64,000 nucleotides of DNA. Origin: a virus (Duplodnaviria; Heunggongvirae; Uroviricota; Caudoviricetes). Both the position numbers and the translations under genes were made by a program. The notes beneath the pieces are model-generated. The model had not been told where the DNA came from. It searched no databases and saw only the letters and a list, made by a program, of their open reading frames with translations. Shown here piece after piece: positions 19,591 through 39,996 of the stretch (positions are counted from its first letter, which is position 1; each line of letters opens with the position of its first letter). The DNA is taken from the IMG/VR virus record IMGVR_UViG_3300031555_010707, one strand, 5' to 3'.

Positions 19591-21781
19591 TGACTGCCTC
19601 CTGATAATACTTGTTTCGGAGTTCGACAATGTTGGTAGAAGGATTACTCTCGGCATACTTTCTGACGAAAGCATAGAAATAATTCGTCAACGGAGTTTGC
19701 AAAGCGCCGGTGTTACGGAACTGTCCATAGTTGAATACGCTTTGGGCTACTCCGCGAAGAAGTTTCCATGTGGCGTAATAATCCGTCTTGATCTTGAGCA
19801 TGAATCCGACAGCATCTCTGATGACATATCCTTCAAAGGGAATGGCATCGGGACGGGCAAGAAGATTCTGAGAATTCTGATACAGGGAAAGGAATTCTTC
19901 CCAGTTATTGATGACACAGGCTCTCTTTTTCACTTCCAGTCCAAGCTCTTCTGCGGCACTGACGAGTTGAACATAGCTGCAAGCCGAGAATTCCAGTTGG
20001 TTTTCCACCATGTCCAGAAGATAGAGATGCTTCTCTCGGTATTCAATGATGTGTGGATCATTGACGGGATCAACCGCCTCGAACAGGAGCGTTACATCAT
20101 GTTTCTTCAGGTACTCTGTCAGCCTCTGCTTCTGCTCATCAGTGAACATGGAACGGAAAAGTTCTGCCATCGCACCGTCAACAGAAGACTTGGTGGTCAT
20201 GAACAAGGAGCCCGTAGACTGGTCATAAGAAACCAGCCCGAGGAAACCATTCTCTTTTTCGAAGACTTCAACAGGGAACACGAGTTTCTTCTGAAGCACA
20301 GACAGCTTGGTGTTCTGTCTTTCGTTGACTGCGAAGAATTTTTCATATCCACGAGCCACAACCTTCATGTTGGTGGTGTCGATATACAAACCGCGAGCAC
20401 GAACTGTAAGCGAATTCCACTTCTTATCCATAAAGGCTGCCCGAGTGAAGTTGAAGGAAGAAATATGACCGAAGGACTTTTCATGAATGAGGGGACTCTG
20501 CCGCATCCTCGCAACGAGATCGGAAATGATCTCTCTTTCAGTAGATGCAACGGGTTGCGCATCTTTGGGTGGCTGAACAACGGGCTGTTCGGCGGAGGGA
20601 TAATTAACCACCTTCCAGCCTTCTTCAGACAGGACGACGGTTCTCAGCTCTCCTCCACGTTCTACAGCGCCTTCGAGACAGAAACAATGTTCCGAAACAT
20701 GAGTCGGCAAACCGGAAACATTGCGATGACCGAACACCTGATAATACATGGGCGGAGCGGATTTTTCAAAGGACTCAACACATTCCTCCATCTGCTCGTA
20801 AAAGCCAACGCCGGAAATCATCTGGCAGGCAGGAACAAAGTCGAGATGGCCGAGAGAAGACCAGTCTGAAATACCTCCATGAGTGCAGAGTACAGTGCGA
20901 CCACGATATGTATAATAGGAACACTGTCGGATACGGCGGTAGAATTTTCTTATTTCTACCATGGAAATGCCGGCTGCATCAAGCTGGAATCCAGTCTTCG
21001 AATTGAACTCCCTTGAAGCAGATTGGCGACCGTTCGCCCACTCCCACAGATGAACCTCGTGATTTCCTTCAAGGAAACACACATTGGGGCGTTCTGAAAT
21101 ATCCATGAGGAACTGAAGAACCTTCGGAGAATCCGGGCCGCGATCAGCATAATCTCCGCAGAAAATATAGGCGGTCTTATCATCGATGCCATCCACAGGA
21201 TTTTCCCCGAACACCTTCTGGAGAGTGGAGTAGCATCCGTGAATATCACCGATGTGTACGACCTTATCATATTCGCTCAAATCGAAAGGAGTAGTAAATA
21301 TCTGCTCCCAATCATCGACGGTGATTCTCTTGATTCCGGCTGGAATATTCTGTGTCTGGAAACGTGAGTATACCTTTTCAATGTAGTCCTGTGGAACGAT
21401 TTTGAGCGGAGGCCGCTGGGCGTTACGGCGGAGGGTTTCCTCCAGAGGAATATCCGTCATGTCCAGGCAATAGATCCGATAGCGGTATTGATGCGCCAAT
21501 TCTTTGTAGCGCGTCATTTCGCTCGTCTTGGAATTGCAGGCATCGATAATCGTGAAATCACCGCGCTGCATCCTGCGTTCAAGCATGGCAAACAAGGTAT
21601 CCCAGACAATTCTATCGTTCTTCTGGGATATGACGGGCTTACCTTGTGGATCAAGTGCCGGGGAGGCAAAAAGGGAACGAATCTTATCAGACGAAAGTGC
21701 ATGGTCAGACAGGCCGTTCTTCTCAATCCAAGTGGATTTGCCGCAACCTGGAGCACCGCGCATCAAAATGAGAATTCGCAA
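19574..21781 (-). CDS. pnkp: Trifunctional RNA repair enzyme: polynucleotide 5'-kinase, metallophosphoesterase and ATP-dependent ligase-like (Clostridium thermocellum Pnkp-type architecture)
   Basis: N-terminal P-loop GAPGCGKST. Central GDIHGC, GDYADRG and GNHE calcineurin motifs. C-terminal EKENGFLG KxDG-like adenylyltransferase motif; 735 aa. Confidence 0.75.
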   Translation of the reverse strand: MRILILMRGAPGCGKSTWIEKNGLSDHALSSDKIRSLFASPALDPQGKPVISQKNDRIVWDTLFAMLERRMQRGDFTIIDACNSKTSEMTRYKELAHQYRYRIYCLDMTDIPLEETLRRNAQRPPLKIVPQDYIEKVYSRFQTQNIPAGIKRITVDDWEQIFTTPFDLSEYDKVVHIGDIHGCYSTLQKVFGENPVDGIDDKTAYIFCGDYADRGPDSPKVLQFLMDISERPNVCFLEGNHEVHLWEWANGRQSASREFNSKTGFQLDAAGISMVEIRKFYRRIRQCSYYTYRGRTVLCTHGGISDWSSLGHLDFVPACQMISGVGFYEQMEECVESFEKSAPPMYYQVFGHRNVSGLPTHVSEHCFCLEGAVERGGELRTVVLSEEGWKVVNYPSAEQPVVQPPKDAQPVASTEREIISDLVARMRQSPLIHEKSFGHISSFNFTRAAFMDKKWNSLTVRARGLYIDTTNMKVVARGYEKFFAVNERQNTKLSVLQKKLVFPVEVFEKENGFLGLVSYDQSTGSLFMTTKSSVDGAMAELFRSMFTDEQKQRLTEYLKKHDVTLLFEAVDPVNDPHIIEYREKHLYLLDMVENQLEFSACSYVQLVSAAEELGLEVKKRACVINNWEEFLSLYQNSQNLLARPDAIPFEGYVIRDAVGFMLKIKTDYYATWKLLRGVAQSVFNYGQFRNTGALQTPLTNYFYAFVRKYAESNPSTNIVELRNKYYQEAVNERSA

Positions 21782-23133
21782 GAGAACACCTCCTTGTTTT
21801 CATTCAAGTAATTGACAATATGGACACGTTCATTTTTCAAAGAGCCATCAATTACAGCATCAAGAACCTTGTTCAGAACAAAGCCGACTCTTTTCCCTTC
21901 CGCTATATTGAGCAACTCCATTACATCTTTTCCGCTGATTTCCAAATCTTTCAGACTAAAGCATTGGTTTTGCTCGACAATCTCATAGGCAATAGCTGCC
22001 AGAGATACGCAGCGTTCAATTCGAGACTGCTGAGTGCTCTCCTTATGAGCGAGAATATCAGCCATTCTGATTTCAACCAGTCTTGAAAATTGGAGTTCAC
22101 CGATTTTGTTCAACCATCGGCGCACTGTCTTCGGGGTAGGCTCAATAACGGCATCGTGGAACAACACAAGTTCGAGTACGTCATGCTTGGTTTTGTTGTC
22201 AAAACGCAATCTGTCAAGAACCTTTTCGGCAAGATCTCGACTGTATACTCCGTGACCATAGAAGTGCCCTCCGTTTTCATCCGTGGTATAGCAACATGGC
22301 TTGCCAATATCATGAAGGAATAACGAGAGCTTTATAACAATGTCATTTAATCCGCAGTTTTCTACGGCATGACAAATGTGATCGTATACGGTGTACTCGT
22401 GATACCTGTTATTTTGGTCAAATCCAATGCAGGGACTCATTTCTGGAATGATGACAGAGATAACATCGCTATACTCCAGTAAGATTTGAAGAACTCCTCG
22501 ACCACAGAGCATCTTGCATAGCTCGGTCTGAATTCTCTCTGCTGCAATGTTCAGGAGCTTTTCTTTATTCCTATGGATTGCCTGAGATGTTTTCTCTTCA
22601 ATGGCAAAACCATATGTAGAAGCAAAGCGCATTGCTCTCAGGATTCGAAGCGCATCTTCTCCGAATCTGTCATCTGGATTTCCAACGCATGAAATGATTC
22701 TTCTATTCAGGTCGTCCTGACCATGAAAAGGATCGATAATTCTTTCTCCGTCATAGGCCATTGCATTAACAGTGAAATCACGGCGTGCTAAATCCAGCTC
22801 TATGTTTTTCACGAATTCTACACTATCAGGATGTCGGCTATCAGAATAAAGTCCGTCAATTCTGAAAGTCGTAACCTCATACTGCTCAGAATCCCCGAGA
22901 TTAACCGTGATTGTTCCGTGCTGTAAGCCTGTATCAATCGTCTTGATATTGCGTTTTGCGAAGAAAGCCTTCATTTCAAGAGGAGTGGCTGATGTGCAAA
23001 TATCCCAGTCTTTCGGTTCAAGGTCAAGCAAGCTGTCTCGCACGCATCCACCAACGACATAGGCATCAAACCCGGCCTTGCGCAAATCCTGTATGATGAA
23101 ATTGGCGCCGTGCGGGATTTGGATATTACGCAT
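21763..23133 (-). CDS. cca: CCA-adding tRNA nucleotidyltransferase with a C-terminal HD domain
   Basis: GGCVRDSLLDLEPKDWDICTS is the class II head domain; HDIGK is the HD motif. Confidence 0.75.
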   Translation of the reverse strand: MRNIQIPHGANFIIQDLRKAGFDAYVVGGCVRDSLLDLEPKDWDICTSATPLEMKAFFAKRNIKTIDTGLQHGTITVNLGDSEQYEVTTFRIDGLYSDSRHPDSVEFVKNIELDLARRDFTVNAMAYDGERIIDPFHGQDDLNRRIISCVGNPDDRFGEDALRILRAMRFASTYGFAIEEKTSQAIHRNKEKLLNIAAERIQTELCKMLCGRGVLQILLEYSDVISVIIPEMSPCIGFDQNNRYHEYTVYDHICHAVENCGLNDIVIKLSLFLHDIGKPCCYTTDENGGHFYGHGVYSRDLAEKVLDRLRFDNKTKHDVLELVLFHDAVIEPTPKTVRRWLNKIGELQFSRLVEIRMADILAHKESTQQSRIERCVSLAAIAYEIVEQNQCFSLKDLEISGKDVMELLNIAEGKRVGFVLNKVLDAVIDGSLKNERVHIVNYLNENKEVFSCEFSF

Positions 23134-24148
23134 CGATAGCTCTCCTGTTCACTTCGATAACAAATTCCTCGACCTTCTTCATGTCCGGATGCTTTGGGAG
23201 GTTGGTATTTGCCTTCGCATATTCCAGACGCTTCTCGTATTCGCTCACCATCTCAAAGAATTCAGGCGCATATGAACCGTCTTCGCGCTGAAATTTACCG
23301 TTTCGGATACTGAGCAGAAAATCTCTGTCGTTGTATCGATAGGTGTTGATTTCGCCTTTCTCCAAGATGTCCAGACACAGAAGATAGAGACGAATCAGGT
23401 GCATGGCGTGCTTGTTGAGATGATCGTCGTCCTTCTTATGATTGCGATGGTGCAACTTCTCGTAATCTCGAAGTACACTGGACAGGGTGTTAAGCATGAT
23501 GCTGAACTCTCTGGCAGGATACTTTTCAAGGTGAATGTTGCAGAACACTTCCTTATCAAGATCGTCACGAGAACTCTCGTCGGTAAAGAGGCTGATACAA
23601 CCCTGATCGAAATCGGAATACTTGGAAGCGAATTCCCGAAGGGCTCGTTCCAGTGCCCCTCTGATGTGTTCCTCTTTCTTTGCCTGCGGCAACCTGTCTC
23701 TGGCGAGCGCGTTTTCCAAACGGCGAAGCTGCTGAGTAGCATATCCTCCGAACGAACTGACCGCTCTTTGCGAAAGGAACAGGCTTGCGTTGTCGATCAT
23801 CATGCGGCCTGCATCGGAAACATAAAAATAATGCTCCGGTTTGCAGCCGAGCATTTCAATCGTATTGGGATTGCAGTTCAGAAGCAAGCTGACCAGTTTG
23901 TTGAAGCCATAGATGGTAGTGTCGGTCTGCGTGTTTACGACCTGTTCAAAATTTGAGAGGCCGAGAAGATCACTCTTGCTGTTCATTGCACAGCCTCTTA
24001 CATCTACATCCGATGTTTCAATGTTGGTTCCATAGGCATGACTTCCGCCAAGCGTAAGGAACATAAGTCGGCCTGCGAGGTGAGGATTGGTTCGCAAGAA
24101 GTCATATTCCTCTCCGTTTACCATTTCTTTGATTTGCTCAAGAGTCAT
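23126..24148 (-). CDS. Pol-beta-superfamily nucleotidyltransferase, RlaP-like (RNA-ligase-associated NTase)
   Basis: LGGSHAYGTNIETSDVDVRG is a GS-YG-SDxDxRG signature. Confidence 0.5.
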   Translation of the reverse strand: MTLEQIKEMVNGEEYDFLRTNPHLAGRLMFLTLGGSHAYGTNIETSDVDVRGCAMNSKSDLLGLSNFEQVVNTQTDTTIYGFNKLVSLLLNCNPNTIEMLGCKPEHYFYVSDAGRMMIDNASLFLSQRAVSSFGGYATQQLRRLENALARDRLPQAKKEEHIRGALERALREFASKYSDFDQGCISLFTDESSRDDLDKEVFCNIHLEKYPAREFSIMLNTLSSVLRDYEKLHHRNHKKDDDHLNKHAMHLIRLYLLCLDILEKGEINTYRYNDRDFLLSIRNGKFQREDGSYAPEFFEMVSEYEKRLEYAKANTNLPKHPDMKKVEEFVIEVNRRAIDA

Positions 24149-24605: not shown

Positions 24606-26099
24606 TCAGAAATTGCCGAACCACAAGATGTTGCGAATATCCGACAGAGAATACTCTTTCAGCATCTTGCCATCGCGGAAAACAGGAATCAGAAGATTCA
24701 TGGGGTCGTCGTTGTGTTCAGCAAAGGTCAGGCCATCAACGCAGGAAAAATCCTTTCCATCGAAATGCACGGCGCAGCATCCTCGCTGAGATTTCTTGAA
24801 GTGCGCGTTATCCGTCTTGGGATTTTTGAAAATCATGATGGGGGTTCCATTCTCGTCTTCTGCATAAGTTGCCTTAATGGCAATGCCAAAGGTATCACGA
24901 GTAAATGGATCGAAGTGACGGACACCGTTCTGGTCATAATGTTCAAGGCACTGCATTGAGAAAGAGCCGACGCCAAGAGAAACATTATTACATGCAAAAC
25001 CATTCTGCGTCAGGATTTCATAGATCTTTTCGCAGCGTTCCGGTGTAATGGAATCACCGTAAATGGCTTTGACGTGAGGATCAAGAACCTTATAGCCCTT
25101 GGAATTGACCGTACCACCAAACGTTTCCCAAAGATGGAAGACAGTCTGGGTAACAATCTCAACAGGATCACCGCTGTCTCCGCGAACCAGAAGGCATCCA
25201 TCATGATTCATGATCTCATCCTTCAGCTGAGGAAGAATGTTATCCACCAGATTCCAGTAATCATAAGAATCGGATACCATCGAGAAAGAATGATGAGGAT
25301 AGATTTCCGTAAGCAGTCGGCGAACGAAAGTAATTTCGTCTCCATCGACAGCGTAATTTGAACACATTACACTGTGTTCGGTAGAAATCGCGCCGAATGC
25401 AACGGGTTCCTTGGTACAATCGCAGTTGTAATACTTCTCAAGCCATGGAAGAGTCGGAACGGTTGCAGTATTCAGGAACGAAAGGCAGAAACCAGCGCTG
25501 GACATTACCGCACTTTCGATACTCTCCTGACCTCTCATGGAGAAATCACCAAGAGCTTTGGCACGAGGAAAAGAATCATCGACGGTCTTATCGTAATACT
25601 TATTGACGATGTTTCGATACATAACACCAACGTTTGCACTTACCATAGCGTGCCAAAGCGTGGCAGAGATCGCTGATTCAATGGTATTGACCAGCCATGC
25701 AAACTTAGGATGAGTATTGGAAATCTCGAACATAGGAACCTTGATGTTCACACGGCAACCTTCGGGCAGTGCCCGAATCTCAAGAGGCAAATAGCCCAGA
25801 TCGTAAAGCTCCTCGATCTTTTTGAGATTGTAGGAATTCTTTCCGAGGCCGTTGTCAACGATGCGAGCATATTCTGCCAACACCTCATCCTTCGGACGAG
25901 AGAAAAAGAAATCATCAAAGCATTCGATGAGATACGTTTTGATGAATGCCTGCAGGCCAAACATAACGAGCTTATTTTGACCTTCCAGGCGGGACATCCT
26001 GGGCGTAAAATACGATACCAGCTTCGTGACATTCTTAGGGTACATGTCGGAATGTACCACCTTGTACCAGTCACACAGCAAAAGCGGATTAAGTTTCAT
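24606..26099 (-). CDS. nadV: Nicotinamide phosphoribosyltransferase family protein (NadV/NAMPT-like; could be the Namat of a NARP1-type pair)
   Basis: The N-terminus LLCDWYKVVH resembles the NAMPT DSYK motif; 497 aa. Confidence 0.7.
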   Translation of the reverse strand: MKLNPLLLCDWYKVVHSDMYPKNVTKLVSYFTPRMSRLEGQNKLVMFGLQAFIKTYLIECFDDFFFSRPKDEVLAEYARIVDNGLGKNSYNLKKIEELYDLGYLPLEIRALPEGCRVNIKVPMFEISNTHPKFAWLVNTIESAISATLWHAMVSANVGVMYRNIVNKYYDKTVDDSFPRAKALGDFSMRGQESIESAVMSSAGFCLSFLNTATVPTLPWLEKYYNCDCTKEPVAFGAISTEHSVMCSNYAVDGDEITFVRRLLTEIYPHHSFSMVSDSYDYWNLVDNILPQLKDEIMNHDGCLLVRGDSGDPVEIVTQTVFHLWETFGGTVNSKGYKVLDPHVKAIYGDSITPERCEKIYEILTQNGFACNNVSLGVGSFSMQCLEHYDQNGVRHFDPFTRDTFGIAIKATYAEDENGTPIMIFKNPKTDNAHFKKSQRGCCAVHFDGKDFSCVDGLTFAEHNDDPMNLLIPVFRDGKMLKEYSLSDIRNILWFGNF

Positions 26100-26112
26100 A
26101 TTTCCCTTCCTT

Positions 26113-26922
26113 TCATTTGTTCAGGGGGAAAACGGTGATCTTCTCGTGTTCTTTGTGGAAGATACTGTCCGTGGTATAGACATGATCCACAAAATCCGTC
26201 GTCAGCAAATCACCCTCAAAGATTGCATGTTCGCAGTGGGAACAGAAAACCGAAACGCTTTTCGCGCCAAGTTCTTTAAGGGCTTTTGCGGAATGAAAAA
26301 ACGTGCCGCCGCGACAACAGATGTCATCCACGATCAGCACGTTCTTGCCCTTGATGTCGGCATTACAAACAACATCGAGGCCGGTAATCTTTCCAGTTTC
26401 CCAGCAGCGACGTTTAATGCCGAATCCGTATGGAGTTTTAATCATATCAGAATAGCGCTTCATAGCGCCTTCATCCGGGTAGAACAGAAGCAAATCGGGA
26501 TCATCCATATTTCCCATCGCCTTGCGAATATAAGGCTCTGGGGACAGGATCTTGCAGTTGTTGATGAGCGCAGTTGCAACATTGGAATGAGGATCGAGGA
26601 TATACACCGCCTTAAAGCCCAGCATGTTGATAAAGTCGGCAAAATACTTCAGCGTAAAGACTTCATAATCATGATGCGTTCTGTCCATTCTGGCATTCGG
26701 ACAATACGGAAGAACGAGCGAGACGCCCTTAAAAGCGGAATGCTGCCAAAGATGACGGACAATGTAGTAAAGCGCTGTCATTTCATCTTCGCTCTCATAA
26801 TGCCAGCGGATTACTGCCTCGCCTCCATTGTAGGCAACATCGGGGCTGGAAACTCCAAACGCGAAAGTTCCGTCTGGAAACCGGCTGTCCAGCTGGATGC
26901 GGTAATTGTTCAGCCAAATCAT
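26113..26922 (-). CDS. PRPP-synthetase-like phosphoribosyl pyrophosphokinase (Prs; or an Adps-type ADP-ribose pyrophosphate synthetase)
   Basis: PRPP-binding loop VLIVDDICCRGGT. Shorter than canonical Prs at 269 aa. Confidence 0.6.
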   Translation of the reverse strand: MIWLNNYRIQLDSRFPDGTFAFGVSSPDVAYNGGEAVIRWHYESEDEMTALYYIVRHLWQHSAFKGVSLVLPYCPNARMDRTHHDYEVFTLKYFADFINMLGFKAVYILDPHSNVATALINNCKILSPEPYIRKAMGNMDDPDLLLFYPDEGAMKRYSDMIKTPYGFGIKRRCWETGKITGLDVVCNADIKGKNVLIVDDICCRGGTFFHSAKALKELGAKSVSVFCSHCEHAIFEGDLLTTDFVDHVYTTDSIFHKEHEKITVFPLNK

Positions 26923-26937
26923 AGCTAACCCCTCCGT

Positions 26938-27567
26938 TTAGCCGTTGATGATCTTGATGTTACAGGGAGCCATAGCGTCGAGCGCCGTTTTGTGAGATTC
27001 GGGAGATACACAAGCGCAGCAAGCTGCGTCCACGATGATCTCTGCCTCGGGAAGCACAGCGCGAAGCAGCATGGCGTTGCTCAGCACGCAAATGCCCGTA
27101 CAGACTCCGCAAAGAACGATACGGTCATACTGTTCATCGCTTGCTACATTAGAGAGAACAACGCTTCCGAAGGTGGGCTTATTGAGCATGGCGAAAAAAT
27201 GACCAGAGCCAGCACAGTTCATCTTCGAATAGGATTTTTGTACGTCCTCGTTGATCTGCCAACCATCACTGTTCTGAATACAGTGAGGAACCGGGAGCAT
27301 TTTGCCTTCAGCCGTGTCCATGTAGTTGTCTTGGTGCGTGTCTCTGGTCATGATGATGTCGCCCTGCCAGCCTTCGATTTTCTCGCAGACCTTGGGCACG
27401 ATTGCCTTGGCCTCGTCTGTGCCAAGGACACCTGTTACGAAGTCGTTTTGCATGTCAACGACTACAAGAAGTTCCTTCAAATTCCTTTCCTCCTTGATAT
27501 GTTTTAGATGATGTTCGTCATCTATGACCTCGGCTTTTCTTGTCGAAACTGCCAGGGTCATGCCCAA
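26938..27567 (-). CDS. pncA: Nicotinamidase / isochorismatase-family hydrolase
   Basis: LVVVDMQNDF has the catalytic Asp. PHC is a metal-binding motif. CGVCTGICV carries the catalytic Cys. Confidence 0.6.
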   Translation of the reverse strand: MGMTLAVSTRKAEVIDDEHHLKHIKEERNLKELLVVVDMQNDFVTGVLGTDEAKAIVPKVCEKIEGWQGDIIMTRDTHQDNYMDTAEGKMLPVPHCIQNSDGWQINEDVQKSYSKMNCAGSGHFFAMLNKPTFGSVVLSNVASDEQYDRIVLCGVCTGICVLSNAMLLRAVLPEAEIIVDAACCACVSPESHKTALDAMAPCNIKIING

Positions 27568-28080
27568 CGAATCGTGAGGCGAAGCGGCAAATAATAATTC
27601 GGTGCCCTGTGTGCGAGGAACTTAGGGGAAGTTCAGCCTTGGCTGAAGTTCATCCGAAGTTTCGAGCGCACAGCCTGCGGAGGATCTTTGATCCGAAGCA
27701 GGATTTGCCGCGAGCCGAACGAAAGGAGCATTGGGTTTCACTTTCGATTACACCAGAAAGTCACAATCTCCAGAAATTATGTATTCATGTTTACTGGTGA
27801 TTGGTATCTTCATGACGAACTGTGATTGTGAATGCTTCGCAATCTGCATTGTATGGATGAGCTTGAGGATGACAGTGCGGGCCCTGGATACCGGTCGGCG
27901 AAGAGTCGTCAGCTCGTGCTATGACGTGTTGAGATGTCTAACGACCATGCCGGATCTGCTCGGGATGGGCGGATGCTGCAGACTCGACGTTATAAATAGC
28001 GCGATGGCCGCGTTCATCGCCTGATCGCTGAGCGCCTGAAGCCGGGCTGCCGGCTCGCAGGTGCCTCTGGGGCGGGGTAC

Positions 28081-28160
28081 GTCATCCTAACCTTTTGATA
28101 CTCCGGATTACACCTCGAAGCACTTAATCCTTAGAAATAAGAACCAAGTTATACATTGCG
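28081..28160. repeat. Conserved leader element, copy A (a near-identical 50 nt plus ttatacattgc); a second copy lies at 39915..39986
   Basis: gtcatcctaaccttttgatactccggattacacctcgaagcacttaatc versus gtcgtcctgaccttttgttacgccggattacacctcgacgcattcaatc. On the minus strand each copy follows a TGTATAAC/TGTATAAT -10-like box. Confidence 0.6.
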
Positions 28161-28173
28161 AAGTTAAAGGGAA

Positions 28174-28264
28174 TGGCGGAGAGAGTGGGATTCGAACCCA
28201 CGGACGGCGCGGAGCCGTCGGCGGTTTTCAAGACCGCTGCCTTAAGCCGCTCGGCCATCTCTCC
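28174..28264 (-). tRNA. tRNA-Ser(TGA), type II, CCA encoded
   Basis: Cloverleaf folded by hand; anticodon loop CTTGAAA. Confidence 0.75.
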
Positions 28265-28272
28265 ATTACGGG

Positions 28273-28479
28273 TCAGTTTTTTGTAAAAGGTATAACCACT
28301 TCTTTAAGAGCTTGAATTCTATCGAAACGGTCATTGCGGCCATCAACCCAGCGTTCTTTACCACAGCGTTTACAGCGATATTTCCGCATTGAGAATCGAA
28401 CATTGCCGTCAGTAGATTCAAACCAACTTACTTTAACGAACTTATGTCTGCAGAATAATGAGATAAGCCATTTTTTCAT
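28273..28479 (-). CDS. Small zinc-ribbon protein
   Basis: CKRCGK pair. Confidence 0.3.
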   Translation of the reverse strand: MKKWLISLFCRHKFVKVSWFESTDGNVRFSMRKYRCKRCGKERWVDGRNDRFDRIQALKEVVIPFTKN

Positions 28480-28490
28480 ACTGCGTCTCC

Positions 28491-28790
28491 TTAGAACTTT
28501 CCAAGTATAACGGCCTTATCGGATATGTATTCGCCGTTAATGGTATTGAAGTATTGACCGATCGGGCGAACAAGATAGACGATTGGATTTCCTCCGTACT
28601 TAATACAGGCTTTCTTGGCAAATTTCTGAGCAGTAGCAAGAGACGTTGTGAAGAAAACCTTATCTTCGTACTTCTTCCTCCAATGTTCACGCTTGCAATT
28701 CGTGATGATGGGAGGCAAGAGAATTTTGTGAATTTGGAGAGAATCCGTAGTTCCATGATAGAAAACTTTAGTATTCGCCGGAAAATTCAT
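28491..28790 (-). CDS. Small protein resembling the C-terminal NAD-binding lobe of Tpt1/KptA RNA 2'-phosphotransferase (an ART-fold)
   Basis: VFYHGTTDSLQIHKIL matches the KptA LYHGTASRFLDEIK. GGNPIVYLVRP matches HGSPVILTV. Confidence 0.3.
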   Translation of the reverse strand: MNFPANTKVFYHGTTDSLQIHKILLPPIITNCKREHWRKKYEDKVFFTTSLATAQKFAKKACIKYGGNPIVYLVRPIGQYFNTINGEYISDKAVILGKF

Positions 28791-29046
28791 GTTCAATGAC
28801 CTCGCATCCGTGGGCGGCGTCTTCGATGAGCCCAATCAAAAGAGCTTCTACGTCATCAAGAAGGTTTGCATAGGTACTCCCGTAAAGCCCAACCATATTG
28901 TCCGAATCTCTTTCTTCGTCCTCCGGACTGGGGATACGGACATTATGCTGCTCAAGAATTTCTTCGAACATATCGATAATTCTTGCCGCTTCGTCATGCG
29001 TATAGATGGTCTTTCTATCCGAATCAGATTTGACTATACCCGTCAT
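28768..29046 (-). CDS. Hypothetical acidic protein
   Basis: ORF. Confidence 0.3.
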   Translation of the reverse strand: MTGIVKSDSDRKTIYTHDEAARIIDMFEEILEQHNVRIPSPEDEERDSDNMVGLYGSTYANLLDDVEALLIGLIEDAAHGCEVIEHEFSGEY

Positions 29047-29273
29047 CGTACTCCTCCTTGATGATTTCTTGTCCTCTGCATCCTCTTTCGAGTCAAGCGG
29101 CTTGGAACGCTTCTTGCTGCATTACAAGCGGCAGACAGCCCAGTCCTACTATCTGCCGGATGTCCAGCTGTACTGGTTGGAGGGAACGCGATACTCCTGG
29201 CAAGCGCGAGCCTGTCTCCATCAAGCTCGTAAATGCGCTTTCATGCCCTGTCAATAACCAAGTGTATCGCAGC

Positions 29274-29352
29274 AGTGGTCTTCCTGGCGGGACTCGAACC
29301 CGCGACTCCTTGATTAAAAGTCAAGTGCTCTACCAACTGAGCTACAGGAAGG
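29274..29352 (-). tRNA. tRNA-Lys(TTT)
   Basis: Anticodon loop CTTTTAA; CCA encoded. Confidence 0.75.
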
Positions 29353-29355
29353 TAA

Positions 29356-29430
29356 TGGCGGCTCGTCAGGGATTCGAACCCCGAACCTATCGGTTAACAG
29401 CCGAGTGCTCTACCTTTGAGCTAACGAGCC
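29356..29430 (-). tRNA. tRNA-Asn(GTT)
   Basis: Anticodon loop CTGTTAA; CCA encoded. Confidence 0.75.
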
Positions 29431-29468
29431 ATGATGCCACCGCCATTGTCGTAGAGGTGGCAAACAGA

Positions 29469-29660
29469 TTAGAATAACCGCTTTCCGCAAGTCGGGCAGC
29501 GGTAGATGGTGAAATTTCCGATCTTATAATCGGTTCCATTGGTTTTGCAGTTGATCGGAAGATATTCGTTATCCCATTTCAGGCGATGGATTTCTCTTCC
29601 GTTCTTATCGACTTCGGCAACATATGGAACATAGCCTTTCGGATTGCATACACTGCACAT
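29469..29660 (-). CDS. Small zinc-ribbon protein
   Basis: CxxC...CxxC. Confidence 0.3.
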   Translation of the reverse strand: MCSVCNPKGYVPYVAEVDKNGREIHRLKWDNEYLPINCKTNGTDYKIGNFTIYRCPTCGKRLF

Positions 29661-29663
29661 AAA

Positions 29664-29951
29664 TCACGCACCTTCTTCCAGAAGATCGTCTTCAGTCATT
29701 TCATCCATGTCGCTTCTCATCGCCTGAAGTTTTCTCTGATCCGAAATCTTGTTGCTGGACATAGAATTCGGGCTACCTCCCCATGACTTGCGGGGATTGC
29801 ACATACAGCAGGAGCAGTGAATCTTGTTCTTGGAATATTGATGAAGATTGTCATACCAGTCTCCACCCATAATGTTCCTGACGATGGAACGCTTGCGTTT
29901 TGCATGTTTCCAATCCATCTTTCTGGAACGACCTCTGTTATTCGGCTTCAT
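29664..29951 (-). CDS. Hypothetical basic Cys-containing small protein
   Basis: AAGGAG 7 nt upstream of ATG 29951. Confidence 0.3.
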   Translation of the reverse strand: MKPNNRGRSRKMDWKHAKRKRSIVRNIMGGDWYDNLHQYSKNKIHCSCCMCNPRKSWGGSPNSMSSNKISDQRKLQAMRSDMDEMTEDDLLEEGA

Positions 29952-29973
29952 GCTATCACTCCTTGCTAAAGAA

Positions 29974-30066
29974 TGGCGGAAGGTGTGAGATTCGAACTCA
30001 CGGTGCCCGAATTTCAGGCACGCCTGATTAGCAATCAGGTGCATTAAGCCACTCTGCCAACCTTCC
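29974..30066 (-). tRNA. tRNA-Ser(GCT), type II
   Basis: Anticodon loop TTGCTAA; long variable arm. Confidence 0.75.
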
Positions 30067-30069
30067 AGA

Positions 30070-30144
30070 TGGAGCTCCCATTCGGATTTGAACCGAAAAC
30101 CAATCGCTTACGATGCGATTGCTCTGCCGTTGAGCTATAGGAGC
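30070..30144 (-). tRNA. tRNA-Thr(CGT)
   Basis: Anticodon loop ATCGTAA. Confidence 0.7.
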
Positions 30145-30411
30145 ACTTGTGTCTACAATTTCAATCGAACTTCCGATTTCTTCTCCAGCGCCTGCACCAA
30201 CAGAAATCGCAATCCAGATACCCGACACGATGCCCGTCGATTTTGCACACCGAAGAACCATGCGCCACATGTTCTCGATTGCCACAACTTCCGCAGCAGC
30301 GCCCTTCTCTTACGTCGTCTGAAGCGTATACTTTCAGGCCGTTGTTGCTATTGCGAGTATCATAAGAAAGACATATGAGCAACGAGAACACCTCCTAAAA
30401 TGATTGATGAA

Positions 30412-30488
30412 ATGGAGCCGGATATGGGACTCGAACCCATGACCCTGCGCTTACAAAACGCACGCTCTGGCCATCTGAGCTAATCCGG
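30412..30488 (-). tRNA. tRNA-Thr(TGT)
   Basis: Anticodon loop TTTGTAA. Confidence 0.7.
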
Positions 30489-30577
30489 CATGTGTGGTGG
30501 CCTCTGCTGGTAACGATCCAGCCTCCGTAGATTTTCAGTCTACTGCTTTCACCATGTAAGCTAAAAGGCCAAGTAAA

Positions 30578-30654
30578 TGGTGCCGAGGGTGGGACTTGAA
30601 CCCACAAATCGCAGATTTTGAGGCTGCTTCCTATGCCATTTCGGATACCCCGGC
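30578..30654 (-). tRNA. tRNA of uncertain identity: type I structure, canonical register gives anticodon CAA, discriminator A73
   Basis: Acceptor, D and T arms are good. The anticodon stem GCAGC/TCTGC has a loop-proximal C-U mismatch; loop CTCAAAA. Confidence 0.55.
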
Positions 30655-30817
30655 TTGTGTGTTTCCCGCTTAGATTGAACATTGTATCCTTTGGGTCACG
30701 GCTACTCAGATCAAGCCGAACATTTGCAACTGTCCAGTTCCAATGCTTTTCAGCGGACATTTTCATTCTCTGTGAGGAATCCACAACGCTCACATCAGCA
30801 GGGAGCGACCCTGCATT

Positions 30818-30900
30818 TGGTATGGATGAAGGGATTCGAACCCTTACGCTTACGCACTGGGACTTAAAACCAGCGTGCCTGCCAATTACACCACATCCAC
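30818..30900 (-). tRNA. tRNA-Leu(TAA), type II
   Basis: Leu-like D arm and long variable arm. Loop TTTAAGT. G1-U72 first pair. Confidence 0.6.
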
Positions 30901-31176
30901 TTAGTCTATTTTGTTGCGCCATTCATCATAGCTGGGAGGAGACATACCCTCATACTCATCGCTGTTATGGTCAATTGCCCATTGTACGAGGAACAAAAGA
31001 TACCGCTCCCAACGCACGTCATAATCGTCCAGCAATGCACAATTGGTCAACCTCATGCCACTTTGTTCGAGCCATCCGAATTCATGCTCAAGCATTTCTA
31101 TCGGAGGAAGCTCGGCTGTTGGCTCCTCTTGATAATTGATAATTGCAACGAAGGTTCTTTCATCCACCGCTATCAA
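30901..31176 (-). CDS. Hypothetical small protein
   Basis: ORF. Confidence 0.3.
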   Translation of the reverse strand: MIAVDERTFVAIINYQEEPTAELPPIEMLEHEFGWLEQSGMRLTNCALLDDYDVRWERYLLFLVQWAIDHNSDEYEGMSPPSYDEWRNKID

Positions 31177-31243
31177 CCTTTCCTATGGAAAGGCACCCCG
31201 CCACAATGAACGGGGTGCCAAGAGAATATGTGTTTATGTACAA

Positions 31244-32737
31244 TTAGTGCTTGTCGGCAATAGCTCCACCAAGCATACCGGACAGCAGAGCCATCAGATC
31301 CAGACCGGTTGCATCCTTGAAGCCGTCTTGCACCTGCTTCATACCGGTCGTAACCGTGCCGGTCAGATTGGAGGTGCCGCCCTCGTAGATGGTCATGTTG
31401 TCGATGCTTTCCATGGGCTTCGCAATTGCCGCTGCAATGTCCGGCATGGTCTTGACGTATTCCAACGCGACGTCCAGAACCATCTGCTGCTTCGCGGCAT
31501 CGTCGTATTCCTTCATGGCTTCCGCCTTCTTCAGAATACCAACAGCTTCAGCCTCCGCTTTAGCCTGGATGGCTTCGGCTTCAGCGCGACCCTTTGCGGC
31601 AACGCCTGCCGCCTCGTTCTCCATAGCAATACGCTCTGCTTCGGAACGCGCCTTTTCGGCGGCGGCTCTTTGTTCAGCTTCGAACAGCTCAGCGTCTGCC
31701 TTCTTCTGTCGCTGGAAAAGCTCAGCCTCTGATGCCTTCTGAAGTTCGTACAGACGAGCGTCGGCTCTCTGCTGAGCAGCATACTTGTCTGCTTCAGCCT
31801 TCTTCTTGATCTCGGCATCCAGAGCGCGTTCACGGATGGCGACTTCACGTTCCTTCAGCTCAATCTCCTTTTCCAGACGAGCCAAGTTAGCCTCGGCAGT
31901 CTTAGTTTCGATAGAAGCACGCTGTTCCTGCTCCTGAATGGAATAAGCAGCATCGGCTTCTGCTCGCTTGGCATCCTCGATCTTTTTCAGTTCGGCTCTC
32001 TGGATTGCCAATTCGTTCTTGCGCTTAGCAATCTCTTGCTCAGACTTGACCTGAGCTTCGTTGGCAGCCATAGCGGCCTGCGCTCTGGCAATGGCAATTT
32101 CCTTTTCGGCCTGAGCCTTGGAAACAGCCGCATCCTTGGAAATCTGAACCGTGTTTTCCAGACCCAGATTATCAATGACGCCGTTGCGATCCTTGAAGTT
32201 CTGGATGTTGAAGGTGGTCAGCTCCAAGCCCATATCACGCAGATTGGGCGTTACGTTCTCAATGATGCGTTCAGCGAAAGTCTTCTTGTCGCCCTGAATG
32301 AGTTCTTTCAGAGTGGTCTGAGAAATAATTTCGCGGATGTTGCCTTCGAGAACGGGAGTGATGATTTCCTTGATTTGCTCGGGCTTATAGCCAAGGAACT
32401 TGGATGCTGCAATCTTCAGCAGTTCGGGTTCTTTGGAAATCGCCACGTTGGCCACCGCATCAACCATAATATTGATTGCGTCCTTGGTGGGAATCTCATC
32501 GCGGGAAGTAAAGTCGGACTGAATGTTTTCGAGCGACATGTAGTCAACTCGCTGGATAATGGGGATGACAAGAGCGCCCTGACCAATGATGGTTCTCGAA
32601 CCACGCGGGCCGGTGATGACCATTGCAATGTTCGGGGGAGCCTTCTTGTACATAACCTTGCCGATGAAGACAACCAAGAGGACTGCGGCGATGAAACAAC
32701 CAACAAAAACAGCGGCAGACATGATAGATTCGAGCAT
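31244..32737 (-). CDS. SPFH/band-7 flotillin-like membrane protein
   Basis: N-terminal TM, an SPFH core (NIAMVITGPRGSR...), and a long EA-rich coiled coil. Confidence 0.6.
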   Translation of the reverse strand: MLESIMSAAVFVGCFIAAVLLVVFIGKVMYKKAPPNIAMVITGPRGSRTIIGQGALVIPIIQRVDYMSLENIQSDFTSRDEIPTKDAINIMVDAVANVAISKEPELLKIAASKFLGYKPEQIKEIITPVLEGNIREIISQTTLKELIQGDKKTFAERIIENVTPNLRDMGLELTTFNIQNFKDRNGVIDNLGLENTVQISKDAAVSKAQAEKEIAIARAQAAMAANEAQVKSEQEIAKRKNELAIQRAELKKIEDAKRAEADAAYSIQEQEQRASIETKTAEANLARLEKEIELKEREVAIRERALDAEIKKKAEADKYAAQQRADARLYELQKASEAELFQRQKKADAELFEAEQRAAAEKARSEAERIAMENEAAGVAAKGRAEAEAIQAKAEAEAVGILKKAEAMKEYDDAAKQQMVLDVALEYVKTMPDIAAAIAKPMESIDNMTIYEGGTSNLTGTVTTGMKQVQDGFKDATGLDLMALLSGMLGGAIADKH

Positions 32738-32940
32738 TCTGATTCTCCTTTGGTTCTATTTAAGTTCCCGCTGATACCAGCTCCGAGGATCACCCATCGC
32801 CCTGATAAGACTAATGCGAAAACCTTGAATCGGAGATTTGATATAGCTTTAACCCTTGACCCTTAACGCTTGAGCTTTATTGCGTATAAACTTTAATGCC
32901 TAAGCCTTACACTTTGAGCTTTATGCTTTGAGCTTTGAGA

Positions 32941-32967
32941 CAAAAAACAAGCGCTCCTGGCTTGTTT
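32941..32967 (-). terminator. Rho-independent terminator downstream of 33111..33758
   Basis: On the minus strand, stem ACAAGC / GCTTGT followed by TTTTTT. Confidence 0.45.
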
Positions 32968-33110
32968 CTCTATGCTTTGCATAGCATCTTCATATTATAT
33001 CGCAACCCAAATGCGTTTCCCTGTTTACATTTATTTGGCATTCGTCCAAACAGGGGAAAGTGTCGAATGAGCCTATCGTTTAGGGTTTTCAGTAACAGCG
33101 GAATCTTATT

Positions 33111-33758
33111 TTACTTGGTATCGTAGCTGACAGTGATGGTAGTCAGCGCATTGCTTACGCTCAGCGCAGCATCAATTTCAGCATCGAAAGCATCGATCTG
33201 CTCACTGAGCTGTTCGACCTTGGCTTTGATGTCAAGGGGATCGACCATATCCAGAGAGTTCATTTCGATGTATGCTTCACGGGTCTTAATGGCTTCGTCA
33301 CTCTTTGCCTTTTCACTGTTGGCAAACAGGCCGGAAACATAGGCGTCTGCCTTAGCCTGAAGCTCATCTCCGTTGGTGCGCTTGAAGTCCAGCGTTGCGG
33401 CAGCGAACTGCACTGTCATCTGCTTGACAAGCAGACGCAGGTTTTCCATGCCGGTCTTCTTCATCTCAATGGCTTCTGCAACCGTATAGGACTTGCCGCC
33501 AATGGTCACTTTGGTCTGGGCATTGGAGATGGACAGCGCATTACGGATCGCCGCTCTGCGATTGATACGAGCAATGATGCTTTCATAATCGCTCTTCATG
33601 CCATCCTTGTAGTCACCGACAGGCTTGCCGGCAATCTTATCATTAGAATGCTTGTTCGTGGTAATAAAAGTCGTGCCACGAATCTGATTCTGGATTCGAT
33701 CATCCAGAATCTTGAGGGTGCTGAGAGCCTGATGGACAGTCATGGTTTCCGTAGTCAT
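33111..33758 (-). CDS. Hypothetical protein
   Basis: ORF. Confidence 0.35.
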   Translation of the reverse strand: MTTETMTVHQALSTLKILDDRIQNQIRGTTFITTNKHSNDKIAGKPVGDYKDGMKSDYESIIARINRRAAIRNALSISNAQTKVTIGGKSYTVAEAIEMKKTGMENLRLLVKQMTVQFAAATLDFKRTNGDELQAKADAYVSGLFANSEKAKSDEAIKTREAYIEMNSLDMVDPLDIKAKVEQLSEQIDAFDAEIDAALSVSNALTTITVSYDTK

Positions 33759-33786
33759 GTAAATACCCCTTCCTTTTCTTCTGAGT

Positions 33787-33861
33787 TGGCTGTGGCGGTT
33801 GGGTTCGAACCAACGAATGCGGGAGTCAAAGTCCCGTGCCTTACCGCTTGGCTACGCCACA
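33787..33861 (-). tRNA. tRNA-Gln(TTG)
   Basis: U1-A72; loop CTTTGAC. Confidence 0.75.
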
Positions 33862-33864
33862 ATG

Positions 33865-33939
33865 TGGTGGAGGATAAGGGGCTCGAACCCTCAACCTTCC
33901 GCTTGCAAAGCGGATGCTCTACCTTTGAGCTAATCCCCC
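33865..33939 (-). tRNA. tRNA-Ala(TGC)
   Basis: G3-U70 present; loop TTTGCAA. Confidence 0.75.
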
Positions 33940-34220
33940 AGGTTGCACAGCGACCAATCTTCATCTCCAATGTCATGCTGAATTAAGGTGGACATGGAAC
34001 AAGCGTCCTTGCGTGAGCTCCCACAGGCCAAGTGCCATATCTCTCAATGTTCTATTAGCCCTTAATCCCTCTGCGTAATTCGTCTTATGAGTGCATTCCA
34101 TCAGTTAGAAAAACCGATCCTGCGCATGGCGGCTTCTATTCAGTTTTGAAAGGACGTATAAAGCCGCAACGGTAGTCCGTTTTCGCAGCTACGGATGTCT
34201 AATTTGTGCTGCGTCAGCGT

Positions 34221-34294
34221 TGCGCCCGAAGGGAATCGAACCCTTGACCACGCAGTTTCCCCTGCGTGACTCTACCAACTGAGTTACGAGGCGC
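34221..34294 (-). pseudogene. Aberrant tRNA-like gene: good T arm, extra 5' nucleotide, a 6-bp anticodon stem with a 6-nt loop GGGAAA, no encoded CCA
   Basis: T arm AAGGGTTCGATTCCCTT; anticodon arm ACGCAG GGGAAA CTGCGT. Confidence 0.4.
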
Positions 34295-34481
34295 ATAGAA
34301 ACCTCTGATACTTTTTCATCGCTTGTTTTCACAACCCTGAATCAATTAACAGGAAACGGTTTAATGTTATCAGAGGCGAGACGACCTAAGCCTTTTTGCC
34401 GTTAGAAAGCATTATCTTGTCGCCTGGAGGGGCGGATTTTCTCATGCTCCGCCATACAAGGAACCCTGAATCTAACTGGGT

Positions 34482-34558
34482 TGGCAGGGGAAGAAGGATT
34501 TGAACCCTCATCTACATCTGATTTGGAATCAGGAGTTTTTCCGTTAAACTATTCCCCT
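34482..34558 (-). tRNA. tRNA-Trp(CCA)
   Basis: Loop TTCCAAA. Confidence 0.7.
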
Positions 34559-34616
34559 TCGTAAGCGACTGCCGAAACAACCGCTACTTTTGATAGACTT
34601 ACGCCTTTATGATGGC

Positions 34617-34693
34617 TGGCGCACCAAGAGGGACTCGAACCCCCGACACATGGCTTAGAAGGCCAATGCTCTATCCATCTGAGCTACTGGTGC
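34617..34693 (-). tRNA. tRNA-Arg(TCT)
   Basis: Loop CTTCTAA. Confidence 0.7.
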
Positions 34694-34698
34694 AGAAG

Positions 34699-34772
34699 TG
34701 GAGCACCGTGCGGGAATCGAACCCGCGACACATACTTGGAAGGAACGTGTTTTGCCACTAAACTAACGGTGC
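34699..34772 (-). tRNA. tRNA-Gly(TCC), weak anticodon stem
   Basis: Loop CTTCCAA; its 5' end overlaps the HEG stop by 10 nt. Confidence 0.55.
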
Positions 34773-35560
34773 GCAGTTATGATGTCAACCACAGGAATTC
34801 TAAGTTTCCTGCACCATTTTTTAACTGAGTTGCCCGTTACGTTATATTTGCGACCAACTGCGCACAGGCTCTTCAGCTGTAAAATATCTTTAATTAGATC
34901 GTCTCTGGTAGGAATACATCCATTTTTCATTTGTGCAATATGAGAACACTTTATGGAACAATACTTCTGACCTTTGGAGCGACTTTGAAATACTGAAGAA
35001 CACACTCCGCATACTCTTTTACCGCACTGGATATTGCTATCGATTGGCCTCAGTTTGTCTTTACTGACCAACTTTCTATATACGGATTGAGTTCTTATCG
35101 GGTATTCAATGTCATCCATCACCCAGCTATCGCCTCGATTGATCGAACGTACCATACTACCTGAAATGCCAACAATATCGCCAATCTCATCCGTAGAATA
35201 CGAAGTAGTTTTCAGCATATCGACTATTTTGCTGTATAGCTCATTCGTCATAATATTACTGTGGCCATCTTGTCCTCCCGGAGTCGAATTGTAACCATTC
35301 GGAACCATGCTGTTGTAATACGAAATCCAGTATCTTTCCTTTTCATTGAGTTCGGACGTTAAACAGCTTTCTACCACCTCAAACGAGAAATTTTCTATCC
35401 CGTATTTTGCAAAGGCCTTATATAGTGGAAGATGCAGCAATCTTTCTTCATGCGCCGACTTATGATTATTCCATCTTTTTGATATACACCTGGATTGTCC
35501 TATGTATATCTTACCGTTAATCCGATTTTGAATCTTATAGATCCCAATTTCTTTCGCCAT
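34763..35560 (-). CDS. GIY-YIG homing endonuclease with C-terminal DNA-binding Cys motifs
   Basis: GIYKIQNRINGKIYIGQS is the GIY-YIG motif. Confidence 0.7.
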   Translation of the reverse strand: MAKEIGIYKIQNRINGKIYIGQSRCISKRWNNHKSAHEERLLHLPLYKAFAKYGIENFSFEVVESCLTSELNEKERYWISYYNSMVPNGYNSTPGGQDGHSNIMTNELYSKIVDMLKTTSYSTDEIGDIVGISGSMVRSINRGDSWVMDDIEYPIRTQSVYRKLVSKDKLRPIDSNIQCGKRVCGVCSSVFQSRSKGQKYCSIKCSHIAQMKNGCIPTRDDLIKDILQLKSLCAVGRKYNVTGNSVKKWCRKLRIPVVDIITAHR

Positions 35561-35591
35561 TTCGTTATCCTACTCATAATGAATTGCTATT

Positions 35592-35668
35592 TGGTCTGGC
35601 TGACAGGATTTGAACCTGCGACCTCGTGATCCCAAATCACGCCATCTACCAAACTGATATACAGCCAG
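35592..35668 (-). tRNA. tRNA-Pro(TGG)
   Basis: Loop TTTGGGA. Confidence 0.7.
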
Positions 35669-35674
35669 ATACTG

Positions 35675-35759
35675 TGGTGGGCGGAGGTGGATTTGAACCA
35701 CCGCATCCAGAGGAGCCTGATTTACAGTCAGGTGCCTTTGACCGCTCGGCCATCCGCCC
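35675..35759 (-). tRNA. tRNA-Tyr(GTA), type II
   Basis: Loop CTGTAAA. Confidence 0.75.
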
Positions 35760-38016: not shown

Positions 38017-38296
38017 TGAATATCTCTCCTTTATCTGTATGATGGAAATGCGCATATTTCCATCTTTCTTGTATATTAGCAAAAGTGACAGGGGTGCCAA
38101 ACAGATGGAAAAATCGCGCTTTTCAGGCATGGTCAGAATCAAACAGTTGGATTTTTCGCATCAGAAGGACGGTCATCAGGTTGTTCGATATACTCAAGGT
38201 AATCTTGTTCAGATGCAAAGAGGATCATGTTATCCTGAACTCTTCCCATATATCCATGCTGCGTGAAGTATCCGTAAGGCATGATTGCACCTCCGA

Positions 38297-39965: not shown

Positions 39966-39986
39966 GAGATTGAATTATACATTGCA
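39915..39986. repeat. Conserved leader element, copy B
   Basis: See copy A at 28081..28160. Confidence 0.6.
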
Positions 39987-39996
39987 GATTTAGGTT

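Follow-up and report, generated by a model that had tools for sequence, protein, structure and literature searches.

A family of structured RNA units in gut phages, probably retron-like and linked to a single phage reverse transcriptase

Two segments of about 50 nt in a stretch of Caudoviricetes DNA (IMG/VR record IMGVR_UViG_3300031555_010707; the whole stretch of 64,000 nucleotides that was analysed is called the window below) are 86% identical over 50 nt (28080-28129 and 39914-39963), and each lies 11-18 nt from an exact copy of the box GCAATGTATAA (28149-28159 and 39975-39985, both on the minus strand). The question raised by this locus is what the duplicated element is; the earlier note, which had pointed out both the repeat and the box, considered a promoter with a conserved leader motif or the conserved 5' end of two related noncoding RNAs (ncRNAs). 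Here we report that the element is the 5' module of a closed, covarying RNA on the gene strand, and that the units to which it belongs, several per reverse transcriptase (RT), form a multi-copy family tied exclusively to this RT. The units are probably retron-like msr-msd ncRNAs, several per phage and served by one phage RT, with putative cDNA synthesis. Retrons are bacterial anti-phage systems that consist of one RT, one ncRNA and an effector.

A search of the rest of the window, suggested by the earlier note, located the element in these two places only, and a degenerate 34-nt core with up to three mismatches occurred at exactly two sites of the window (0.00 expected, as estimated with 100 shuffles). 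Copy A is flanked by tRNA-Ser and the PncA/Prs/NAMPT operon, and copy B by a 250-aa open reading frame (ORF) and the RT gene; all genes in this region are on the minus strand. Both copies head a noncoding leader on that strand, as had been described, but the leader of PncA measures about 600 nt to the real start of the gene at 27480, the 510 nt given previously being the distance to the start of the longest ORF (27567). The leader of the RT measures about 283 nt from copy B to the RT start at 39630. The elevated G + C content that had been noted was also found (0.56 at 27800-28099 versus about 0.47 in the surroundings, and 0.60-0.61 in the unit bodies), with more C than G on the transcribed strand.

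Two features had been missed on first reading: the PncA leader is made up of two tandem units, and the terminal arm of each unit is complementary to the sequence just 5' of the box. Because this adjacent 5' sequence pairs about 300 nt downstream, the box can be resolved into the end of a 5' arm, an invariant G and a linker. The 50-nt element comprises the 3' half of hairpin 1, hairpin 2 and a tail. A comparison with Rfam returned only 17 tRNAs above the gathering score in the window, and nothing credible in either leader at E values up to 10. The element finds its explanation in the protein that had been named only 'the RT', because this enzyme is of the retron type.

The window contains three units, one upstream of the RT (wB) and two in tandem upstream of PncA/Prs/NAMPT (wA1 and wA2), whose parts are listed in Table 1. 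The arms and both hairpins form in the minimum-free-energy folds of wB and wA1, which match covariance model R1 with 64.4 bits (39898-39986) and 62.9 bits (28064-28160), respectively, and their hairpin-2 stems differ by a compensatory pair (GCGTC/GGCGT in wB, GCTTC/GGAGT in wA1). Unit wA2, which ends 32 nt before the TTG start codon of PncA, gave a local match on hairpin 2 only (14.6 bits, E = 0.16). The closest relative, L013, has a corresponding second unit at this position (about 2673-2960, arms AAACCCATTGT/ACAATGGGTTT); there, the tandem pair upstream of PncA is kept and PncA is 57% identical. The spacing between each unit and the upstream tRNA-Ser or ORF is 8-10 nt, and the 5' end of wA1 could partly be set by 3' processing of tRNA-Ser. 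The genes of the downstream operon were assigned with Pfam (Isochorismatase, Pribosyltran, NAPRTase/NAMPT_N). Besides PncA, the Prs-like protein and NAMPT (24606-27480), an NAD synthetase is encoded at 15904-16674 (minus strand), giving a fuller NAD+ reconstitution set than the three genes named earlier.

Table 1. Coordinates of the three units of the window, of their parts, and of the genes discussed with them.
Feature	Position	Strand	Description
Unit wB	39657-39989	-	333 nt; next to the RT on its upstream side; 26 nt to the RT start
wB 5' arm	39981-39989	-	ATCTGCAAT
wB invariant G	39980	-	
wB linker	39975-39979	-	TATAA
wB hairpin 1	39957-39974	-	
wB hairpin 2	39934-39955	-	apex GGTGTAATCC
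wB tail	39914-39933	-	AACAAAAGGTCAGGACGACG; followed by the A/C-rich body
wB 3' arm	39657-39665	-	ATTGCAGAT; preceded by TAG
Unit wA1	27835-28163	-	329 nt; orphan unit, 10 nt downstream of tRNA-Ser
wA1 5' arm	28155-28163	-	CTTCGCAAT
wA1 invariant G	28154	-	
wA1 linker	28149-28153	-	
wA1 hairpin 1	28123-28148	-	
wA1 hairpin 2	28100-28121	-	apex GGTGTAATCC, as in wB
wA1 tail	28080-28099	-	
wA1 3' arm	27835-27843	-	ATTGCGAAG; preceded by CAG
Unit wA2	27513-27820	-	308 nt; second orphan unit, divergent; follows wA1 in tandem at a distance of 14 nt
wA2 5' arm	27812-27820	-	GTTCGTCAT
wA2 invariant G	27811	-	
wA2 hairpin 2	27740-27761	-	ACTTTC TGGTGTAATC GAAAGT
wA2 3' arm	27513-27521	-	ATGACGAAC; preceded by TAG
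Retron-type RT	38488-39630	-	380 aa; TTG start; catalytic FADD
tRNA-Ser(UGA)	28174-28264	-	last gene of the tRNA array; 3' end 10 nt from the wA1 5' arm
PncA	26938-27480	-	first gene of the operon downstream of the two orphan units
Prs-like	26113-26922	-	same operon
NAMPT	24606-26099	-	same operon
Erf-like ssDNA-annealing protein	5350-6111	-	PHROG 155, 1.1e-29; PHROG 1218, 1.6e-19; outside the units
Exonuclease	4074-4847		listed with the Erf-like protein

A scan of viral contigs with the exact motif of the window gave no match, and the family was reached through homologues of the RT and of PncA, which led to relatives with the same architecture upstream of their RTs. In four of these (L001, L002, L003 and L013) the arms are 10-13 nt long. 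Arm sequences differ in every unit yet stay complementary, i.e. the arm pairing covaries. A metagenome scan added 80 RT loci, and in about 36 of 55 RT loci an arm search identified a unit of the form arm-G...AG-arm, the end of which lay 9-40 nt from the RT on its upstream side; with the covariance model, most RT loci had a unit that was contiguous with the RT, upstream of it and on the same strand. The model (R1), whose construction the earlier note had recommended together with a search of related metagenomic phages, recovered the known copies of the window and hairpin 2 of wA2, and nothing else there. In related gut-phage contigs it identified 186 further copies (126 matches from 61 sources, and another 60), all of them on the RT-sense strand.

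Exact Watson-Crick arms of at least 7 nt that abut the G were present in 86 of the 116 usable model matches (4-10 in controls with a shifted anchor or shuffled sequences), and arms of at least 9 nt in 59 (0-0.4 in the controls). The closing arms are perfect inverted repeats of 7-14 nt without G.U pairs, about 300 bp apart, with the core GYAAT...ATTRC. In 67 of the 89 armed units, the triplet before the 3' arm is TAG or CAG; the G directly after the 5' arm is present in 89 of 89 by construction, as the arm search required it, and the same column is near-invariant in an alignment of 35 sequences. The units have a median length of 293 nt (typically about 290-330 nt). An unanchored scan of the whole genome for arm-G...AG-arm found 6 instances versus 4.7 expected, which is not significant, so that the arms gain significance only when they are anchored on the conserved 5' module.

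In the 35-sequence alignment, 88.4% of the cells in the two hairpins are paired (62.5% in shuffles; 35-52% in slid controls) and 138 cells carry double changes (44 in shuffles), and none of 500 shuffles reached the observed values. Over the 126 matches, 93.8% of the cells are paired. Hairpin 2 is closed by a conserved G.U pair (97 GU, 22 AU), which places the structure in the RNA of the gene strand. Across the family, the box takes the form arm-G-N-A-T-W-W, with GTAT, GAAT, GCAT and GGAT about equally common. Of the readings offered earlier, the conserved 5' end of two related ncRNAs was essentially right: covarying hairpins and closing arms define units of about 330 nt. A pairing of the hairpin-2 loop (TGTAATC) with GATTACA near the ribosome-binding site (RBS) was rejected, as GATTACA is the 3' arm and the loops of other phages mismatch.

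The best 25 matches of the RT in PADLOC are all retron RT types (RT_II-A, 1.1e-42, over 24-301 of 304), and the best 13 among solved structures (PDB) are all retron RTs, with Ec83, Ec67, Ec78, Kva2 and Ec86 among the best. In NCBIfam, retron_St85_RT is the best match (3e-46, 158 bits), and as this score falls short of the 235-bit cutoff, the RT represents a divergent branch; other classes scored 65 bits (group II RT) and 41 bits (Drt2, cutoff 390). No fused domain was found. Retron RTs carry the signatures NAXXH in region X and VTG in region Y, in which H and G are the most conserved residues (PMC7736814). When the RT is aligned to that of Ec83, NAKIH corresponds to AMKKH and VTG to NLG, and the family consensus in these positions is DAVKxH and NLG; the signatures are degenerate, with only the most conserved H and G retained. 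Identity to classical retron RTs is only 24-28%. Judged by these matches, the phage RT belongs to the clade of retron and retron-like RTs.

When the search was started from the RNA, with a 16-mer from the tail as query, an RT was present in 26 of 30 model-positive loci, the other four contigs ending where it would lie, and in none of 19 model-negative loci (chance matches). No unit was matched in 79 PncA loci that had no RT in the locus. In many loci the RT is preceded by one unit and followed by at least two, and some relatives have tandem arrays of 6-9 units (six after the RT in L099, at least eight in L110). Other units lie 12-37 nt before the starts of non-RT genes, among them those for a macro-domain protein, a metallophosphoesterase and PncA. 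The apex of hairpin 2 is common to the units of one genome (GGTGTAATCC in the window, TATTGTAAAT in L002, L003 and L093, CGCCAAAGGC in L103); hairpin 2 is 76% identical within a genome versus 55% between genomes, and its stems covary. Such sharing within a genome is what recognition by a cognate RT predicts. The metagenome scan matched at least 600 stretches from human gut, rumen and termite gut, at least 551 of which encode a relative of the RT. Members on contigs of metagenome-assembled genomes (loci L173-L242) are labelled mostly Clostridia/Oscillospiraceae, but also Bacteroides, Alistipes, Prevotella and an 'archaeon'; this mixture of many unrelated taxa is consistent with phage contigs having been carried along into bins, and the labels therefore do not reveal the host.

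No retron effector was recognized among the neighbours of the RT, which are a conserved upstream block and variable downstream genes. The block, directly upstream of the RT in 102-123 of 149 RT loci (L093-L242 among the related loci), comprises a beta-grasp/ubiquitin-like protein of about 79 aa, a protein of about 475 aa, a protein of about 294 aa with the JAMM motif HSHVNMGVTPSGVD, and a ThiF/E1-like protein; the window holds its last three members (42717-44180, 41738-42745 and 40761-41540, minus strand). As predicted from sequence, the block is a phage-borne ubiquitin-like conjugation set. An RNase HI-like gene of 149 aa lies just downstream of the RT in 15 related loci (cluster c7; e.g. at about 7959 in L240), and none was seen beside the RT of the window. 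An integrase-like gene lies downstream of the RT in 17 related loci; the tyrosine-recombinase/integrase-like genes of the window are at 10093-11130 (minus strand), 53241-54056 and 62592-63659 (both plus strand).

Downstream of the RT, the sequences 38065-38148 and 38296-38404 recur in inverted orientation (75-90% identical) at 59516-59599 and 54306-54413, upstream of plus-strand genes, and include the palindrome TTTTAGAACCGnnTTGGTTCTAAA. They were examined as the repeats of a diversity-generating retroelement (DGR) and rejected: the inverted repeats (38065-38404 versus 54306-54413 and 59516-59599) share the palindrome and mismatch at all bases, and are for this reason ordinary intergenic repeats rather than a TR/VR pair. 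They are probably shared regulatory or terminator elements. The window also encodes a large RNA-repair and tRNA set on the minus strand (7473-8549, 16643-17704, 19574-24148 and 28174-35759), with a Pnkp-like kinase/phosphatase/ligase, a second RNA ligase, a CCA-adding enzyme, an RlaP nucleotidyltransferase and a Thg1-like tRNA-His guanylyltransferase. Among its 17 tRNAs, one is irregular and was assigned no anticodon (34219-34295). This set is suggestive of a role in countering tRNA-cleaving defences. Three tandem copies of a 77-nt G + C-rich repeat, two of them identical and the third 82% identical, are located at 51262-51492, with a related 35-nt piece at 51661-51695.

Between their conserved ends, the units contain bodies of about 200 nt that are A/C-rich and weakly folded (mean folding z-score -0.9, 16% below -2). 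No long stable msd stem-loop was found in the bodies, and the duplex of tail and 3' flank expected of an 'msd stem' gave no signal above shuffles. Beyond local helices, the body has a covarying long-range helix in one cluster; as the pairing of some helices is preserved by double changes, the bodies cannot be regarded as junk. A 101-aa ORF spans wB, and wA1 and wA2 have 2-6 stops in every sense frame; a coding leader was rejected because no frame is open across units on either strand, and hence there is no endless ORF of the DRT2 kind. A further candidate, a body copied from phage sequence as a donor or spacer, was rejected because the bodies resemble neither other parts of the window nor one another within a genome, and GenBank phages gave no similar sequence. 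A conserved mid-body island, CTCnACACGTCAnA, is present in wA1 (about 27905-27920) and wB (about 39770-39785); it is also given as ACACGTCA or TGTCAAG, reads (A/T)TGTCAAG in the g1 and g2 clusters of relatives, and might mark a stop site of reverse transcription or a protein contact.

In near-identical phages, the bodies diverge 5-10 times faster than the synonymous sites of the RT. In one such cluster the body is 50-82% identical, compared with nucleotide identities of 95.6-98.7% for the RT (90-96% at its third codon positions), 93-97% for the upstream flank and 87-98% for the 5' module. Three further clusters are 95-100% identical everywhere except in the body of each unit (60-85%), including two units downstream of the RT. 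The pair L119/L120 shows a mild drop (body 89%, third positions of the RT 92%). The borders of the variable stretch are sharp, about 20-25 nt inside the conserved ends, and the substitutions are of all 12 types, with no A bias. In the lineage of the window itself, five contigs with identical RTs differ by one change in the wB body versus nine in the 750-nt upstream gene, i.e. the hypervariation is not visible at very short distance.

The reading that we consider probable, that of retron-like ncRNAs, suggests the following mechanism. Each unit consists of a 5' arm of 7-14 nt, a G, two msr-like hairpins, a short conserved tail, a template-like body of about 200 nt, (T/C)AG and a 3' arm. The invariant G after the 5' arm has the position of the priming or branching G of retrons, and in an experimental census of retrons the branching base was most often G, as was the first copied base (PMC10849725). 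The hairpin-2 module that the units of one genome have in common is most likely what the RT of that genome recognizes; priming would take place on the G, and every unit would have its body copied into single-stranded DNA. One RT would in this way serve several templates, its own upstream unit and orphan units in the leaders of accessory genes or in the tandem arrays of relatives; in the window, the orphans occupy the 5' leader of the NAD-salvage operon. Engineered tandem msr-msd arrays are functional with a single RT (PMC10370050).

The hypervariability of the bodies could arise if error-bearing cDNA were annealed back into its own locus by the Erf-like protein and the exonuclease; the former could anneal RT-made single-stranded DNA into the genome. 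Recombination of msDNA into its own msd gene has been demonstrated experimentally (PMC11624263). Re-annealing of cDNA is a plausible source of the variation, and diversifying selection or the exchange of cassettes are possible sources as well. The full proposal, a natural multi-template retron whose bodies are continuously diversified by Erf-type re-annealing and whose variable single-stranded DNA or RNA serves in the arms race between phage and host or between phages, as decoys or as switches of the accessory genes that follow, is tentative and somewhat doubtful.

An unlikely alternative is that the units are cis-acting modules of 5' untranslated regions that act independently of the RT, in processing, stability or control of translation, and that travel with the RT gene but are never reverse transcribed. 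Their ends do lie 12-37 nt before the RBS and start of the RT, PncA, macro-domain, metallophosphoesterase and other genes, the bodies have no classical msd hairpin, and the loci all belong to a single group of related gut phages, so that the co-occurrence with the RT may partly reflect shared ancestry. Arrays of 6-9 units without intervening genes (L099, L110), however, make little sense as leaders, and the arrangement arm-G...YAG-arm directly upstream of a retron-type RT is the layout of a retron. The apex of hairpin 2 co-varies with the genome, i.e. with the RT, and variation confined to the bodies needs a local source of mutation. A site for put/nut antitermination or a Rho rut site, considered because of the C-rich leader, was dropped after the closing arms and the link to the RT had emerged.

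The promoter considered in the earlier note, with TGTATAAY as the -10 element of a phage-specific promoter and a leader motif for antitermination, a riboswitch or a processing site, has become very improbable. The TATAAC/TATAAT core preceded by TG resembles a -10 element, and the element stands upstream of operons on the correct strand; but the box overlaps a closing arm, since bases within it and just upstream of it form a helix with the 3' arm, at a distance of about 320 nt, and 86 of 116 family members show covariation of this helix. A transcript that starts from the box as -10 would lack the 5' arm, which disfavours a promoter at this place. TATAAT is not kept in the family, a scan with the sigma-70 consensus calls no minus-strand promoter at either box, and there is no -35 element and a spacer of only 8-10 nt to the upstream gene. 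Nor is a riboswitch or antitermination leader supported: conservation is limited to about 85 nt at the 5' end and about 40 nt at the 3' end, the middle is hypervariable, unlike an aptamer, and no family in Rfam matches. Hardly credible at all is an element that acts as DNA, either an inverton flipped by a phage tyrosine recombinase or a MITE-like mobile element, to which perfect inverted repeats of 7-14 bp without G.U, about 300 bp apart, and three tyrosine-recombinase-like genes in the window could point. With respect to the RT and to the genes that follow them, none of the 186 copies is reversed; orientation also agrees among five independent assemblies of the window locus, and the units keep a constant position with respect to start codons. 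Covariation is seen in the internal hairpins, whose G.U pairs occur on one strand only, and within a genome the arms differ and the bodies are unrelated, unlike the copies of a MITE.

The retron-like reading would place the RNA-protein logic of retrons inside large gut phages, with one RT, several templates and sometimes arrays, and with templates built into the leaders of genes of the anti-defence type (NAD salvage, macro domain and others) and bodies that outpace neutral sites by far. If the units are indeed reverse transcribed, they would reveal the use of a retron to a virus, would set a natural precedent for the multiplexed retron arrays that are now built by hand for genome editing, and would point to a new route to local sequence diversity. 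If the cDNA is also re-annealed, this would be a counterpart of DGR diversification that is noncoding and not specific for adenine. The family is abundant and a working covariance model exists, which makes these predictions directly testable.

Like bacterial retrons (PMC7736814), the system has an RT that best matches retron RTs, an ncRNA directly upstream on the same strand, terminal inverted repeats that close the RNA, a G next to each arm on its inner side, and msr-type hairpins, of which retrons have one to three and the units two that covary strongly. It differs from them in its location, which is in large gut phages with tRNA arrays and not in a bacterial defence island, in the several units per RT, present as dispersed orphans and tandem arrays, in a body of about 200 nt that is A/C-rich, weakly structured and hypervariable instead of a long msd hairpin, in the degenerate NAXXH and VTG signatures, and in having no recognizable effector. 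Stand-alone (msr-msd)-RT cassettes are known (PMC7736814). Multitrons share the tandem msr-msd on one transcript with a single RT, each yielding its own RT-DNA in their case, but are man-made (PMC10370050). In the type VI hyRNA of Retron-Vpa2, the template RNA is likewise joined to a downstream coding sequence, whose translation is derepressed by reverse transcription (bioRxiv 10.1101/2025.10.22.683967); that system has one unit, with a small toxin and an HTH partner in bacterial defence, whereas the genes downstream of the phage units are ordinary accessory or anti-defence-type genes and their regulation is putative. DRT2, which produces rolling-circle cDNA and a neo gene (PMC12039810), also combines an RT with a structured upstream ncRNA in which a stem joins the ends of the template, but the phage RT scores 41 bits against the Drt2 cutoff of 390, and no stop-free frame runs through the units on either strand.

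Searches of the accessible literature returned no natural arrays of retron ncRNAs, no such phage retrons and no hypervariable msd; in one very recent preprint (10.64898/2026.09.22.753630), the term 'ncRNA array' occurs 10 times alongside reverse transcriptase and cDNA, and the terms 'msDNA', 'hypervariable' and 'prophage' are absent. With DGRs, the system has in common a phage-borne RT and a sharply bounded hypervariable stretch, but there is no pair of template and variable repeats, the substitutions are not adenine-specific, the RT is not of the DGR type, and the variable stretch is noncoding and lies within the putative template itself. Compared with all of these, the system is, to judge from its sequence features, a retron-like one that is set apart by the absence of a classical msd hairpin and of an effector, by being phage-borne and multi-template, and by the hypervariability of its templates.
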